The notes under the pieces were generated by a model that was not told where the DNA came from, ran no database searches, and saw only the letters and a list, made by a program, of their open reading frames with translations. Source: Rhodospirillales bacterium (GTDB lineage Bacteria > Pseudomonadota > Alphaproteobacteria > Rhodospirillales > SHVQ01). Taken from it: a stretch of DNA of 64,000 bases. Every line of letters begins with the position of its first letter. The stretch's first letter is position 1. The stretch spans positions 10,294 to 74,293 of the forward strand of contig SHVQ01000009.1 of assembly GCA_009694195.1 (NCBI GenBank). Direction: 5' to 3'. The position numbers were made by a program, and so were the translations under genes. Below are positions 57,064 through 64,000 of the stretch, piece by piece.

Positions 57064-57419
57064 CTACTTCTGCTGTCCCTGAATTTGGCGGAGGTTCTCG
57101 ACCAGAATCTTCAGGAGCCCCCGGACGAAGGGGTCGGCTTTCCTGAGCTTCTCCTCGAAGGTCGGCTTCGAAACCACGATGACGGTGCCGCCCTTCGCCA
57201 TGCGGGCGCCGCCATGCGCGGCTTCGCGTCCACCAGCGCCATCTCGCCGAAGATGGCGCCCGGCCCGAGCGTCGCAAGGCTGGTGGGCTGCCCGTCGATG
57301 GTCTTGTAGATTTCAACGGCACCCGCCTGAACGACGAAGGCGGCGCTGCCGTCGTCCCCTTCCTTGAAGACGTGGTCGCCCTCCTTCAACGTTTTCCGTT
57401 CAATAACGGCGTCGGCCAT
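57064..57419 (-). pseudogene. single-domain cyclic-nucleotide-binding protein with an apparent 1-nt frameshift near 57203-57212
   Basis: The frame from the ATG at 57419 gives MADAVIERKTLKEGDHVFKEGDDGSAAFVVQAGAVEIY...GAIFGEMALVDAKPR, then degenerates. My hand translation of the adjacent frame gives ..ARMAKGGTVIVVSKPTFEEKLRKADPFVRGLLKILVENLRQIQGQQK*, ending at the TAG 57064-57066. Confidence 0.65.
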
Positions 57420-58102: not shown

Positions 58103-59467
58103 TTACCGCTCCCGGAACGAATGGCTGACCGACGAATAGATCGGCTTCAAGAGATATTCGAGCAGCGTCTTCCGGCCCGTGTGGACGTCGGCCTGCACGG
58201 TCATGCCGGGCACGATGCGGTTGCGCTCGGGGTTGTATCCGACGTACGTGCGGTCGAGGCTGACGATCCCCTTGTAGAAGGGGTTTCCCTTCTCGTCGAG
58301 GAACGTCGAGGCCGAGATGTCCTTGAGCTCGCCCGTGATGCCGCCGTAGCGGGCAAAGTCGAACGTCGTCACCTTGACGGTCACCGGCTGGCCGACCTGC
58401 ACGTGGCCGACGTCGCGTGTGGTGATGCGGGTCTCGACGACGAGCTCCTTGTCCAGCGGCACGATTTCAAGGGCGACCTGGCCCGGCGTGATGACGCCGC
58501 CGATGGTGTGGGTCTTCAGCCCCTTCACGATGCCGCGCACGGGCGCCTTGACGTGCAGCCGCTGCACCTTGTCCTCGGCCTTGTTGAGGTTCTCCCGGAG
58601 TTGCGCCAGCTCGGCGGTCACCGTCCCCATTTCGCGGAGCGCCGTCTCGCGCAAGTCCGTGTCGAGCTGGGCAAGGCGGCTTTCCGCCTCGCCGAGCGCC
58701 TCCCGCGTGCGCGTGCGGTCGTTGCGGAGCTTCGCGATGTCGCCGTGGGCCTGATTCACCTGGCGCTGCACGTCGAGGTAAACGATCTTGGAGGACAGGC
58801 CCTTTTGGAACAGCTGCTCGCGCATGGCGAGCTCTTCTTCGAGGATGGCGATGTTGCGGCTGAGCGTCTCTTCCTGGTGGACGAAGATCGCCAGCTCCGA
58901 CTTCCGCTGCTTGATCTGGTCGAAGACGACCTCGCGCCAGCCGGCAGCCGCCTTCTTCACGCTCTCGTAGATCGCCTTTTGATCGTCGATGAGGTTCTGG
59001 TAGGTGGCGCTCACAACCGCCCAGTCGGGATTGACGCCGAGCCCGATCGCGCGAAGGCGCTCGGACTGCAGATGCAAGGCGGCGACGCGCGCCCGGAGCT
59101 GATCCTGTTCGGAAAGGGTCCCGGCGGCATCGAGGCGCAGCAGGGTCTGGCCCTTGTCCACCATCTCGCCCTCGACCACGAGCAGCTGGGAAATGATCCC
59201 GCCCTCCAGGTGCTGAATCGCCTGCACCTGCCCGGTCGGAATCACCTCGCCCGAAGTCGCCGCGACCTCGTCCACGTCGGTTGCCGCCGCCCACACGAGG
59301 AAGGCGCAAATGACGACGCCGATCGTGATCATGCCGACTCGGATGAGCCCCGTGCTCCCGCCCTCCTCCAGGATCACGGACTGGGCCAGGAAGCGCGTCT
59401 GCCGGTCGCCGCGGCGGATGCGGCGGCCTTCGTTCGCGGTCGGGGCAGCGAGGGCGGTGTCGCTCAT
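58103..59467 (-). CDS. HlyD-family type I secretion membrane fusion (periplasmic adaptor) protein
   Basis: 454 aa. It has an N-terminal TM anchor, long coiled-coil segments, and C-terminal PGMTVQADVHTGRKTLLEYLLKPI, typical of T1SS MFPs. A 4-nt overlap links it to the ABC gene. Confidence 0.9.
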   Translation of the reverse strand: MSDTALAAPTANEGRRIRRGDRQTRFLAQSVILEEGGSTGLIRVGMITIGVVICAFLVWAAATDVDEVAATSGEVIPTGQVQAIQHLEGGIISQLLVVEGEMVDKGQTLLRLDAAGTLSEQDQLRARVAALHLQSERLRAIGLGVNPDWAVVSATYQNLIDDQKAIYESVKKAAAGWREVVFDQIKQRKSELAIFVHQEETLSRNIAILEEELAMREQLFQKGLSSKIVYLDVQRQVNQAHGDIAKLRNDRTRTREALGEAESRLAQLDTDLRETALREMGTVTAELAQLRENLNKAEDKVQRLHVKAPVRGIVKGLKTHTIGGVITPGQVALEIVPLDKELVVETRITTRDVGHVQVGQPVTVKVTTFDFARYGGITGELKDISASTFLDEKGNPFYKGIVSLDRTYVGYNPERNRIVPGMTVQADVHTGRKTLLEYLLKPIYSSVSHSFRER

Positions 59468-62223
59468 AGGAAGTCCTTCGGCATTTGCTTGCGCACGTCC
59501 GCGGCGGGGCCGAACGCGCGGACGTTGCCGGCTTCGAGCCAGATCATCTTATCGGCGAGCTTCAGGTGGCTGGGCCGGTGGGTGACGAGCAGCGCCGTGG
59601 TCGTGCCGCGGAGGCTGTCCAGGCGCTGCATGAACGCCTGGTCCCCGGCGAAGTCGAGGCCGTTGCCCGGCTCGTCGAACAGCATGATCGGCGCCCGCTT
59701 CAGATACCCGCGCGCGAGATTGAGGCGCTGAAGGACGCTCGTCGGCATCTGGCCGGATCCCGAATCCCCGATGCGGATCTCGAAGCCCCGCCGGGCCCAT
59801 TTTCCCGAGCCCTGCTGCATGGCCTCGATCTCCTGGAGGACGCCCGCCTCATCGGCCGCGCGCCGGAGATCGTTCAGGGTCGCCGTCGGGTGGGCGAGCC
59901 TGAGGTTCTGGGCGATCGTCCCGTAGAAGAACTGGAATCCTTGCGGCACATAGGCAACCGCGTGCCGGAGCTCGATGATGTCCATCTGCCGGATGTCCTG
60001 GTCGTCGATCCGGATATTGCCGGCTTGCGGCTGATACATGCCGACGATGAGCTTGAGGATCGTCGATTTGCCGGAGCCGTTGCCGCCCACGACCGCGACC
60101 ACTTCGCCGGGCTCGATATCGAAGCTGACGCCGACCAGCGCGGGGTCGGTATCCGGGCTGTAGCGCAAGGAGACGCGCGAGAACGAGACCCGTCCGGCGA
60201 GCCGGCGGATCGGCGTGACGAGCTTATGTTGTTCGCGCTCGGCCTTCAGGTTCATGAGCGCGTTGATCTGGTTGATGCTCGAACGCACCTGGGTCAGCCG
60301 CGTGAGCGACACGAAAACGGTCTGCAGCGGGGCCAGCACGCGCCATACGAGCGTCATCGAGGCGACGAGAGCGCCGACCGTCATGTCGCCGTTGATCACC
60401 CGGTAGACGCCGAAAACGACGGTCGCAAGGCCGGACGCCGTCATCAGGATCGTCGAAACCGTCTGCACGAGGGAGGAATATTGCGCGGTGTAGAAGCTGT
60501 TCAGGGCCGCCTTCGCGGAGGCCTTGCGGAACCGCTCGAGCCATGTGTGCTCGGCCGCGCTGTATTTCACCGCCCGCATGGTCCCGAGCGTCTCGATCAA
60601 AAGCTCCTGCCGGCGCGAGGCGCCTCGCGCGGCCTTGGAGACGCTGGTGCGGATCAGCGGCTGCATGACGACGGCAAGCAGACAGAACATCGCCATCATG
60701 ACGATGGGGACGAAGACGAGCGGGCCGCCGAGAAACGCGATGGTGACGAGGAAGATGATCGTGAACGGAAGTTCGAAGAACGTGAGCGCCATCGGGCCGG
60801 TGAAAAAATCCCTGACCGTCTCGAAGTCCTTCATGCGCGCGACCTGGGCGCCGACCGTCGCCCGTTCGGTGAAGGCCGGCGGCAGGAACAAGATGCGGTG
60901 GAACACGGCGTTGCCGACGATGTTGTCGAGGCGGGCGCCGACGTAAGCCATGATCCGCGTCCGGATGATCCTGAGCACGGCGTCGCAGGCGATCGAGATG
61001 CCGACCCCGATGGCAAAATAGGCGAGGGTCGAGAGCGAGCCGGTCGCGATGACCTTGTCGTAGACCGCCATGGTGAACAGCGGCGTCGCGAGCGCCAGCA
61101 CGTTCAAGACGAACGTGACCCCGAGAATTTGATAGACGAGGCCGCGGAAGCGGTCGGACATGGCGTTGAACCAGCCGATCTTCTGCTGGACCGGCAGGAG
61201 ATCGTCTTCCTCCAGCCGCGTGAAGAAGTAGACGGTGCCCCGGGTCCGGGCGATCGGAACCTCGGCGTGCGACGCCGTGGCGCCATTGAAGACGCGAATG
61301 TGGTTGGCGTCCAATCCCAGGAGAACGAGGGCGTCGCCGTCGTCCGGCAGGAAGAGGCACGGCATCAGCCGGGGATCGACCGAATGCAGGCGGAGGCGGA
61401 CCGGCCGGCTTTCATAGTGCAGGTTCGCCATCACGTTGCGGAACGACGTGATGTCCAGGTTATCGACGAAGTGCGGAATCGATTCGGCGATGTGGCGCGG
61501 GTCGCCCCGCCAGTTCATTCCCTGCAGCAAGGGGACGAGGCAATTGGAAAGATCGGTCTTCTCCCGGAGGCCCGCAAGCGCCGAATCGGCAAGCACAGCC
61601 ACGCTCGGAAGCTCGCCCCGTTCCTCGGGCGAGGGCGCGCGGGGCGCGGCGGCCGGAGCCGTCGGCATCCGGAGAGGAGCGGCCGCCGGTTGCTCGGCGG
61701 ATGGCTGAATCTTGGGAGCGGGCTGCGGGGCCTTGAGCTCCGGGAGCGGCACGCGCGGCCGCGGGATCTCGGGCTTCGCTTCGACCGCCGGCGGTTTCGG
61801 CGGCAGCCGGATCGAGGGTTTCGACGCCTCGGGCGGCGCGGGCGGCCGCGACGCAGCCTTCAACCCCGCCGGCTCAAGCTTGGGAGCACTTTCCGGGGCA
61901 CGCAGTGGCGCGACCGCTGGAGCCGGTACCTTCGGCACCGGTGCGGCAGCCGGAGCAACTTTCAGGTCCTCGATGCGCGGCTCGCGGACGGCCGGCTTCG
62001 GCGCCGCCCTCGGAGCGAGCGGGGCCGTCGGTTCGATCCGCGGTTTCGGCGCGACCGGCCGAAGCGCTTCCGCGCGCTTATCGGGCAGCGGCGGCGCATC
62101 GCGAAGCCGCGAGCGCTGGCGGGGCATGACGGCCCGGCCGCGCATCGGCGGCGGCTTCGAGGAGTCCGGATTGGCGTCGGCCAGATCGGTGTCGATGGCC
62201 TCGATTTTGGAGAGCGAGGTCAT
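59464..62223 (-). CDS. type I secretion ABC transporter (PrtD/HlyB-type permease-ATPase) with C39-like N-domain, Pro/Ala-rich N-terminal extension and degenerate signature motif
   Basis: 919 aa. The TMD carries TPLFTMAVYDKVI. Walker A is GGNGSGKST, the Q-loop YVPQ, Walker B IMLFDEP and the H-loop THR. The LSGGQ position reads MPTSV (59734-59748). Residues 1-215 are low-complexity P/A/K-rich. Confidence 0.88.
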   Translation of the reverse strand: MTSLSKIEAIDTDLADANPDSSKPPPMRGRAVMPRQRSRLRDAPPLPDKRAEALRPVAPKPRIEPTAPLAPRAAPKPAVREPRIEDLKVAPAAAPVPKVPAPAVAPLRAPESAPKLEPAGLKAASRPPAPPEASKPSIRLPPKPPAVEAKPEIPRPRVPLPELKAPQPAPKIQPSAEQPAAAPLRMPTAPAAAPRAPSPEERGELPSVAVLADSALAGLREKTDLSNCLVPLLQGMNWRGDPRHIAESIPHFVDNLDITSFRNVMANLHYESRPVRLRLHSVDPRLMPCLFLPDDGDALVLLGLDANHIRVFNGATASHAEVPIARTRGTVYFFTRLEEDDLLPVQQKIGWFNAMSDRFRGLVYQILGVTFVLNVLALATPLFTMAVYDKVIATGSLSTLAYFAIGVGISIACDAVLRIIRTRIMAYVGARLDNIVGNAVFHRILFLPPAFTERATVGAQVARMKDFETVRDFFTGPMALTFFELPFTIIFLVTIAFLGGPLVFVPIVMMAMFCLLAVVMQPLIRTSVSKAARGASRRQELLIETLGTMRAVKYSAAEHTWLERFRKASAKAALNSFYTAQYSSLVQTVSTILMTASGLATVVFGVYRVINGDMTVGALVASMTLVWRVLAPLQTVFVSLTRLTQVRSSINQINALMNLKAEREQHKLVTPIRRLAGRVSFSRVSLRYSPDTDPALVGVSFDIEPGEVVAVVGGNGSGKSTILKLIVGMYQPQAGNIRIDDQDIRQMDIIELRHAVAYVPQGFQFFYGTIAQNLRLAHPTATLNDLRRAADEAGVLQEIEAMQQGSGKWARRGFEIRIGDSGSGQMPTSVLQRLNLARGYLKRAPIMLFDEPGNGLDFAGDQAFMQRLDSLRGTTTALLVTHRPSHLKLADKMIWLEAGNVRAFGPAADVRKQMPKDFL

Positions 62224-62405
62224 AATTGGACCGGCCGGCCAAACGTGTAGTGTTTAAGACGTTGCCCCAACGCTCCAATGCCTCGTTCCCACCCAGAATT
62301 GCCGAGGCTGCTCCGGTGGTCCTGACCCCCCGCTTTCGCGGAGGCGACAGCACGTTGCGCCGCCGACGGCTGCGGCACGACCAGGCCGAGCGAATCAAGC
62401 AGCTC

Positions 62406-62714
62406 ATGTTCACCTTCGACGACCTCGTGCGCTTGGACGCGGGCGGCATCCAGACGCTCTTGCGCCAGGTCGAGAAGGACAAGCTCGCGATGGCCCTCAA
62501 GGGCGCGGCCGACGAAGTCAAGCAGCTCTTCTTCGCCAACATGTCCGAGCGCGCGGGCAAGATGCTGAAGGAAGACATGGAGGCCATGGGCGCCGTGCGG
62601 CTCAAGGACGTGGACGACGCCCAGGCCGCGGTCGTGTCCGTCGCGAAATCGCTCGCCGACGCGGGCGAGATCGTGATCGCCGGCTCCAGCCAAGAGGACG
62701 AGCTGGTCTTCTGA
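62406..62714 (+). CDS. stand-alone FliG C-terminal (torque-helix) domain protein
   Basis: [91 protein letters not shown] matches FliG_C over its full length. There is no room upstream for the FliG N/M domains because the ABC gene starts at 62223. The start could be further upstream in frame. Confidence 0.65.
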
Positions 62715-62890
62715 GCGGCCGGCGTGAGCGCCTCACACGAATCGTTCGATAGCCCGGCGAAAACGATCACGCCGGCTTTCGCCCTCGCGGCAGCGTTGCT
62801 TCGACGTGCGACCTCTGCATCGCGGTCTGGACGTCCGAGTGTTGCGACTCTAACGGATGATACCCGGCAGCCAAGCCTTCGCTCCTCCCG

Positions 62891-64000
62891 TCACCCAGGC
62901 CAAGCGGCCAAGGGGATTCTTGCGGGGATTCCCCGCAAGACCCCAGGGGGCATTTGCGGGGGACACCCCCGCAAGACCCCAAGGCCGCGCGAGTCGAAGG
63001 ACGCTTCGCTCGGCCGGGGTGACGATTGAGGAATACGAGGGGACTCATCCGTTGGCGTCAATCCACTCGGAGTCTGTCTACTGCGCGGCCGAGGGGGGGC
63101 GGTTCGTACCCCCGTCACGTTGGCGCCGTCCGCGTCCAGCCGTTCGGTCAGGAAGCCGATCAGCCGCTCCGTCGGCAAGGCCGGGCTCAAGAAGTAGCCC
63201 TGGATTTCGTCGCAGCGGTATTGGCGGAGAATGTCGAGCTGCTCGGCCGTCTCCACTCCTTCCGCCACGATCCGCCGGTTGAGCGTATGGCCCATGGTGA
63301 TGATGGTGCGAATGATCTCGGCGTCGTCCGCGCTCGTCGCGATGTCGGCGACGAAGCTCCGGTCGATCTTGATCGTGTCGATCGGGAACCGCTTGAGATA
63401 GCTCAGCGACGAATAGCCGGTCCCGAAGTCGTCCATGGCCACATGGATGCCCTTCTCGTGCAGCGCCCTGAGCGCCACCACGGTTCTCTGGGTGTCCGAC
63501 ATCAACATGCTCTCGGTGATCTCGATTTCGAGATGGGCGGGCTCGACGCCCGTTTCCTCGAGCACGCGCTCGACGACCGACACGAAGGCCGCTTCGCGGA
63601 GCTGGCGCGCCGAGAGATTGACGGCGACGCGGATCGGCGGGAGGCCCGCGCGGCGCCAAGCGAGATGCTGCTGGCAGGCGGTGCGGATGGCCCATTCGCC
63701 CACTTCCACCACCATTCCCGTCTCTTCCAGCACGGGGATGAAGCGCCCGGGCGAGACGCTGCCGAGCGTCTTGTTGTCCCACCGGAGCAACGCTTCGGCC
63801 GTTGCGATGCGGCCGGTGGCCAAGTCGAGCTTCGGTTGGAAATGGAGCGTGAATTCGCCGTTCTCGAGCGCCTTGCCAAGCCCGTTCTTCAGGACCAGGC
63901 GTTCTTTCATCTCCTGATTGAGATCGCTGGTGAAGAACTGATAGTTCGCCTTGCCCTGCTCCTTCGCACGGTACATGGCGGAGTCCGCGTTGCGGAGAAG
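62891..64000 (-). CDS. GGDEF-EAL c-di-GMP signalling protein, C-terminal part (5' end outside window)
   Basis: The frame is open to the window edge: LLRNADSAMYRAKEQGKANYQFF is the end of a GGDEF domain. The EAL domain follows with EALLRW, DDFGTGYSSLSYLKRFPIDTIKID and EGVET. A ~90-aa low-complexity tail comes after it. Confidence 0.85.
   Translation of the reverse strand, partial: LLRNADSAMYRAKEQGKANYQFFTSDLNQEMKERLVLKNGLGKALENGEFTLHFQPKLDLATGRIATAEALLRWDNKTLGSVSPGRFIPVLEETGMVVEVGEWAIRTACQQHLAWRRAGLPPIRVAVNLSARQLREAAFVSVVERVLEETGVEPAHLEIEITESMLMSDTQRTVVALRALHEKGIHVAMDDFGTGYSSLSYLKRFPIDTIKIDRSFVADIATSADDAEIIRTIITMGHTLNRRIVAEGVETAEQLDILRQYRCDEIQGYFLSPALPTERLIGFLTERLDADGANVTGVRTAPPRPRSRQTPSGLTPTDESPRIPQSSPRPSEASFDSRGLGVLRGCPPQMPPGVLRGIPARIPLAAWPG
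62918..62985. repeat. tandem pair of ~35-bp hairpin units (TCTTGCGGGGA-t-TCCCCGCAAGA + gaccccagg; TTGCGGGGG-aca-CCCCCGCAA + gaccccaagg)
   Basis: Read directly. They lie inside the last ~30 codons of the EAL ORF and between it and the convergent FliG_C ORF. Confidence 0.8.

Follow-up and report, generated by a model that had tools for sequence, protein, structure and literature searches.

The 64-kb window analysed here (the whole 64,000-nucleotide stretch of contig SHVQ01000009.1 from a Rhodospirillales bacterium) carries on its minus strand a gene for an ATP-binding cassette (ABC) protein of a type I secretion system (T1SS), which we call ABC2, and directly after it a gene for a HlyD-family membrane fusion protein. 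ABC2 runs from an N-terminal motif through a probably disordered linker, a C39-like domain (CLD) and a transmembrane domain (TMD) to a nucleotide-binding domain (NBD) whose ABC signature motif is degenerate. Our data suggest that ABC2 is one half of an asymmetric two-gene exporter and that the gene for its partner, ABC1, has been lost from this genome. The features of the two genes are as follows.

59464–62223, minus strand: ABC2 gene, 919 aa (open reading frame (ORF) and translation, Pfam, NCBIfam, AlphaFold2).
62185–62223, minus strand: MTSLSKIEAIDTD, the conserved N-terminal peptide that marks the true start (homologue comparison).
61609–62184, minus strand: Pro/Ala/Lys/Arg-rich linker, probably disordered, residues 14–205 (composition; predicted local distance difference test, pLDDT).
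61189–61608, minus strand: CLD, residues ~206–345 (domain-only AlphaFold2 model and Foldseek).
60229–61188, minus strand: TMD with a type IV exporter fold (PF00664; long helices in the model).
59467–60228, minus strand: NBD (PF00005; alignment to the HlyB NBD).
60061–60087, minus strand: Walker A, GGNGSGKST, intact.
59791–59814, minus strand: ABC2-specific, nearly invariant 8-residue insertion QGSGKWAR (gap in the HlyB alignment).
59734–59748, minus strand: degenerate signature MPTSV at the LSGGQ position.
59668–59688, minus strand: Walker B, IMLFDEP, with the catalytic Glu.
59566–59592, minus strand: H-loop, LLVTHRPSH, with the switch His.
58103–59467, minus strand: HlyD-family membrane fusion protein (TIGR01843), overlapping ABC2 by 4 bp.

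ABC2 is a type I secretion ABC protein with a C39-like fold, an exporter TMD and an NBD. Pfam places ABC_membrane (PF00664) on residues 369–626 and ABC_tran (PF00005) on residues 698–852, and the best NCBIfam model, TIGR03375 (type_I_sec_LssB), covers residues 225–914 with 524 bits. This score falls below the cut-off of 693 bits, as does that against TIGR01846 (HlyB; 342 versus 726). The HlyD gene, whose start overlaps the ABC2 stop, is full length, scores 403 bits against TIGR01843 (cut-off 209) and encodes a protein 64% identical to its orthologues in loci L014 and L016. An AlphaFold2 model of full-length ABC2, built on 50 homologues, gave confident folds from residue ~206 to 919; Foldseek matched it first to HlyB (8dck_A/7sgr_A, over ~700 columns) and then to PCAT1, with chains of TM287/288, TmrAB and BmrCD also among the matches. 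Modelled alone (residues 205–350), the CLD reached a pLDDT of 88 and resembled 3b79 (the C39-like domain of a Vibrio T1SS ABC protein), 3zua (the HlyB CLD) and the LahT (6mpz), PCAT1 and ComA peptidase domains at TM scores of ~0.6. The domain was recognised through fold comparison only, since it had no match to PF03412 (C39) in Pfam even at E ≤ 10 and phmmer found none among peptidase domains in the PDB. A conserved Cys228 opens its first long helix (alignment and model), and no His precedes the strand at 299–304, as judged by eye.

A preliminary description of this DNA had reported intact Walker A, Q-loop, Walker B and H-loop motifs, together with MPTSVLQR in place of the signature LSGGQRQR, and both observations held. 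All four motifs were found (the Q-loop reads AYVPQ), and an HMMER alignment to HlyB (7sgr/8dck) set 'gqMPTSVLQRLNLAR' opposite 'gl-SGGQRQRIAIAR', mapping to the same coordinates, 59734–59748. Counting back 27 residues, ungapped, from Walker B gave the same register. The pattern [MLI][PT][TAS][STN]xxQ[RKG] describes this position in 113 of the 114 close homologues that are not fused, and nearly all of the best 120 homologues carry MPTS[LVF]LQR or a near variant. The HMMER alignment, the ungapped count and this conservation together rule out a misaligned signature, and the conservation among homologues indicates that MPTSV is neither chance nor a lesion. With the CLD alone as query against 1.8 billion representatives, 470 clusters were returned at E ≤ 0.001, and LSGGQ was present in none of the ~50 parsable full-length representatives of this wider family. 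Judged from these alignments, the degenerate signature of ABC2 is a family trait. The insertion QGSGKWxR, which immediately precedes the X-loop and the degenerate signature within the helical subdomain, is similarly constrained, with Q804, G805, S806, G807, K808, W809 and R811 each at least 90% conserved; alignments place it in neither HlyB nor ABC1.

The census of relatives covered 150 other genomes of the order and yielded 96 ABC2-type and 96 ABC1-type genes, confined to the same 65 genomes. The two genes are adjacent and co-oriented, ABC1 before ABC2, in 94 of the 96 pairs; contig ends in fragmented assemblies split the other two. Orthologous loci L011, L012, L014, L016 and L024 all place ABC1 directly upstream of ABC2, and the order in relatives is always ABC1, ABC2 and then a single HlyD adaptor. 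The ABC1 protein is ~578 aa long and has no N-terminal domain. Natural ABC1–ABC2 fusions of 1291–1441 aa occur in some lineages: one fused protein, P0105, strings ABC1, CLD and ABC2 together in ~1300 aa and is followed by HlyD. The surroundings of the fused homologue in L013 include an RTX gene and an OEP gene. Some family matches are labelled Magnetospirillum, and the Rhodospirillales carriers include genomes assembled as single ~4-Mb contigs. Our literature searches found no paper on this two-ABC T1SS family.

The ATP-site motifs of the two proteins are degenerate in complementary ways. Across 120 ABC1 homologues, Walker A, the Q-loop and Walker B (including its Glu) are retained, the H-loop reads VTPRPS, with its His replaced nearly always by Pro and in a few cases by Ser, and the signature has the form LP[KR]G[IF], for example LPKGI. 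ABC2 has lost its signature and keeps its Walker A, Walker B and switch His. The preliminary description had proposed a heterodimeric partner for ABC2; at the level of sequence comparison this reading is strongly supported for the family by the adjacent ABC1 genes, the fusions and the matching defects, but the assembly at hand contains no ABC1.

ATP sites in ABC proteins are composite, each being completed in trans by the signature of the other NBD. Because the sites form in this way, the degenerate signature of ABC2 would complete the crippled site of ABC1. That site, closed by the MPTSx loop, would be doubly degenerate, binding ATP without hydrolysing it, and the P-loop, Glu and His of ABC2, closed by the less diverged LPKGI loop of ABC1, would make up the single working site. 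The CLD presumably handles unfolded cargo, as in HlyB, and the N-terminal peptide on its flexible tether would most likely be presented to a cytoplasmic partner.

The assembly offers no obvious substitute for ABC1: a search for a T1SS ABC gene that could pair with ABC2 returned no ABC1 orthologue and two unrelated T1SS-like ABC genes. One (G000:C2:19782–21929, plus strand) encodes an LssB-like protein whose signature is the canonical LSGGQ; a TAA interrupts its frame within the first transmembrane region, and the contig ends inside its Pro/Ala-rich C-terminal tail. Its intact signature, its stop codon and its ~31% identity to ABC1 led us to reject it as the missing partner. The other belongs to a separate T1SS locus (G000:C6:4037–11088) comprising a TolC-like gene, recognised by reading its sequence, a 768-aa Gly-rich putative cargo, a single 582-aa ABC protein and a HlyD gene. 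This ABC protein reads LPVGIRRR rather than LSGGQRQR and retains the H-loop His; it too was rejected, having putative TolC-like, cargo and HlyD genes of its own and ~27% identity to ABC1. It may be a lone T1SS ABC protein without a canonical signature.

Since the C6 locus, otherwise complete from TolC to HlyD, has such a protein, lone T1SS ABC proteins without LSGGQ may exist, and this bears on whether ABC2 could act as a homodimer with two LSGGQ-less sites and a slow or regulatory ATPase, ABC2 and HlyD still forming a functional secretion unit. ABC2 does retain all of its own catalytic residues, and the ABC2 and HlyD ORFs are intact, with no excess of substitutions at conserved columns (ABC2, P0001, has 7 deviations at 324 columns conserved in at least 88% of the family, whose median is 7). 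We nevertheless consider such a homodimer quite improbable: all 96 ABC2-type genes elsewhere have an ABC1 and none stands alone, the lineages that changed the architecture fused the halves and dropped neither, and a frameshift in the neighbouring cyclic-nucleotide (cNMP)-binding gene suggests decay around the locus.

The cNMP-binding gene (57067–57419, minus strand) encodes a single-domain protein and is frameshifted near 57213, with residues 1–69 of its orthologue aligning in one frame and residues 70–118 in another. In five of the six loci examined, a few genes separate it from the operon on the downstream side. On the other side of the operon, one or two DUF2927 proteins and a 360–420-aa protein are encoded upstream of ABC1 in relatives (L011:2967–5848, L012:3938–5865, L016:4128–6064). 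The 360–420-aa protein has no family match, and most of these upstream proteins begin with a hydrophobic segment that, read by eye, resembles a Sec signal; on this ground they were rejected as cargo. They may act as accessory components of the exporter in the periplasm.

Neither ABC1 nor these upstream genes lie next to ABC2 in this genome. The sequence beyond the ABC2 start instead contains two features.

62224–62378, no strand: junction of 155 bp where ABC1 should end, without homology to ABC1.
62379–62714, plus strand, facing the ABC2 start: FliG C-terminal remnant, the last ~111 residues (PF01706, TIGR00207).

The junction holds a palindrome (62226–62243) and a dispersed repeat resembling repetitive extragenic palindromic (REP) elements (~62319–62351), which has dozens of 22–38-nt matches genome-wide at 82–95% identity. 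The FliG remnant is 75% identical to residues 229–339 of the full-length FliG in L012, where the complete gene adjoins the operon; it matches TIGR00207 at positions 228–337 only and has a very high GC content at third codon positions (GC3), 0.95. A 63-nt repeat (62838–62900), with copies of 97–98% identity on contigs C38, C21 and C4, separates the remnant from an EAL gene, and this repeat and the REP-like element thus flank the remnant. Past the repeat, the 3' end of the EAL gene is a 72% orthologue of the EAL gene that precedes '401-aa, DUF2927, ABC1, ABC2' in L016. On either side of this segment the gene order is shared with L014 and L016 (EAL on one; ABC2, HlyD, NUDIX, cNMP, DUF502, RecG, Sdh5 and Mfd on the other). 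In a tblastn search of the assembly, which is 73% complete, we found no ABC1, DUF2927 or 360-aa gene, and of FliG the last 111 residues only.

These data make it most probable that ABC1 and two upstream genes for putatively periplasmic proteins were lost by a ~4-kb deletion that left ABC2–HlyD intact, and the FliG remnant and REP-like repeat are probably the scar of this event. A real deletion is favoured because the flanks share one ancestral locus and because other decay is evident in the genome: besides the frameshifted cNMP gene and the TAA within the C2 ABC gene, the sole FlhA match in the assembly (G000:C15:355–1074) covers a C-terminal piece of the protein and is interrupted by an in-frame TAG. 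The flagellar genes of this organism appear to be in decay.

Taken together, we assign a probability of roughly 0.72 to the reading that ABC2 is half of an asymmetric two-gene T1SS exporter widespread in Rhodospirillales and that its partner was lost here, probably through the ~4-kb deletion. Several points weigh against it. The assembly is a metagenome-assembled genome in 49 contigs, and ABC1 might exist in the real genome; the 63-nt repeat could have misled the assembler. The constraint on ABC2 fits a very recent loss, continued function and an assembly artefact equally well. The ABC1 signature LPKGI is itself non-canonical, so the 'active' site would not match the textbook consensus, and the 64-kb window contains no cargo or outer-membrane factor gene. 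Finally, we infer the ABC1–ABC2 complex and its hydrolysing site from comparative genomics.

The incompleteness of the genome and the repeats at the site (the near-identical 63-nt copies and the REP-like element) would fit an incomplete or mis-joined assembly, as would the intactness of ABC2 and HlyD, which are conserved as their partnered orthologues are; the organism would then carry a normal ABC1–ABC2–HlyD operon. We regard this explanation as unlikely. A single mis-join is improbable because both flanks are syntenic with L014 and L016: the odd ~670-bp segment sits between two parts of one ancestral locus, and two mis-joins would be needed. The REP-like match beside ABC2 spans just ~22–38 nt of imperfect identity, no piece of ABC1, DUF2927 or the 360-aa gene turned up on other contigs, their ends included, and the truncated FlhA gene points to flagellar decay independent of this site. 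If the loss of ABC1 was real, ABC2 and HlyD might still be in use, either as a homodimer or with an unrelated half-transporter recruited through the N-terminal peptide, an outcome to which we give little credence.

The N-terminal extension of ABC2 had been described as a P/A/K/R-rich region spanning residues 1–215, and the composition bears this out, with 24% Pro and 20% Ala (44% together), 16% Lys+Arg and 11% Asp+Glu. AlphaFold2 assigned pLDDT values below 50 from residue 1 to ~205, as expected for disorder, and the linker, which matched nothing in Pfam even at E ≤ 10, is probably disordered on the strength of this model. Its in-frame GC3 is 0.81. Tandem Repeats Finder (TRF) returned only a trivial 7-nt array, ruling out a repeat array. 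A start peptide of ~12 residues, M..(I/S)LSK(I/L)EAxD, opens 90 of 114 non-fused homologues, and the 24 without it are mostly short or truncated gene calls. It falls a few bases past the ABC1 stop, except in L011, L012 and L024, where a small ORF intervenes.

Differences from orthologues in the start region sit at synonymous third positions, and in L024, the sole short form checked (annotated as 719 aa), the ORF is unbroken from the start motif. The conserved peptide, the synonymous substitutions and the unbroken L024 ORF lead us to conclude that the extension is translated and to rule out an untranslated artefact of a GC-rich ORF; the short annotated starts of orthologues are miscalls. Motif and linker together measure 40–415 aa across homologues. 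Since both the motif and a long linker are missing from the more distant members of the family, the extension is a clade-specific addition, and the earlier view of it as real, cytoplasmic and atypical for such proteins stands. Its conservation is divided: the N-terminal peptide is conserved, whereas the linker is hypervariable and holds no conserved domain. The extension most likely consists of a brief binding peptide held on a flexible tether in the cytoplasm. The idea that the motif substitutes for fusion to ABC1 is weakened, as the motif is absent from fused forms but also from distant split members. The small ORF between ABC1 and ABC2 (L011:7792–7974, L012:7807–8004 and, in L024, about 2650–2840) encodes 60–65 aa that begin with a version of the motif at the start of ABC2 (LKKLEASD, LLKIEAVD), and it looks like a duplicated leader peptide.

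HlyB, the best sequence and fold match for ABC2, is a homodimer with canonical LSGGQ motifs. The HlyB/HlyD/TolC system and LssB (7SGR, 8DCK, 3ZUA) share with ABC2 the CLD–TMD–NBD order and an adjacent HlyD adaptor. Unlike HlyB and LssB, ABC2 has no LSGGQ, falls below the NCBIfam cut-offs and carries a disordered N-terminal tail of ~200 aa, and, unlike HlyB, it is accompanied in all relatives by a second ABC gene. Two ABC proteins, one with and one without an N-terminal peptidase-type domain, also serve NHLP/Nif11 export (TIGR03796, TIGR03797 and the HlyD family TIGR03794). However, ABC2 lies far below the NHLP cut-offs (257 versus 853 bits for TIGR03796, 221 versus 709 for TIGR03797), with a similar gap for ABC1, and in contrast to the NHLP/Nif11 systems its N-terminal domain has no Pfam C39 sequence match and there are no precursor peptide genes.

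Asymmetric pumps are well known among heterodimeric type IV exporters with one degenerate site, such as TM287/288, TmrAB, BmrCD and TAP1/TAP2 (PMC7756269). As in these, ABC1 and ABC2 are unlike halves in which a catalytic defect in the NBD of one half pairs with a degenerate signature in that of its partner. They differ from TM287/288-type exporters in forming a T1SS pump with a CLD on one subunit and a dedicated HlyD adaptor, in the non-canonical signature of the 'active' site, and in that ABC1 retains the Walker B Glu and loses the switch His. Within type I secretion, the Vibrio MARTX system consists of RtxB, RtxD, RtxE and TolC, and both of its ABC proteins are reported to be required for secretion (Boardman & Satchell 2004, summarised in PMC3034196). 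The MARTX system resembles ours in combining two different ABC proteins with one adaptor; it is set apart, by description rather than by sequence, through its gene order (rtxB–rtxD–rtxE versus ABC1–ABC2–HlyD). Neither rtxHCA-like genes nor MARTX-type cargo were found near the operon in this locus or in the relatives' loci examined.

ABC2 in this genome is, as we read it, the orphaned half of a two-part pump. Annotation as a stand-alone HlyB/LapB-type exporter would be wrong for a gene that lacks its obligate partner. Short-form annotations of ABC2 orthologues omit 200–400 N-terminal residues. In the textbook picture, a T1SS ABC transporter is a homodimer whose two ATP sites are equivalent. The comparisons above suggest that a large alphaproteobacterial group instead builds its T1SS pump from two unlike halves, with one ATP site crippled. 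Drug and peptide exporters with one dead site have been studied in depth; for a T1SS, we found no account of such a design in the literature apart from MARTX, a genetic precedent for the use of two ABC proteins. Two further features are added to the design: the start peptide, conserved although its probably disordered tether is hypervariable, and the nearly invariant QGSGKW insertion next to the degenerate signature. The family provides a natural system for asking what role the second ATP site plays in protein secretion.

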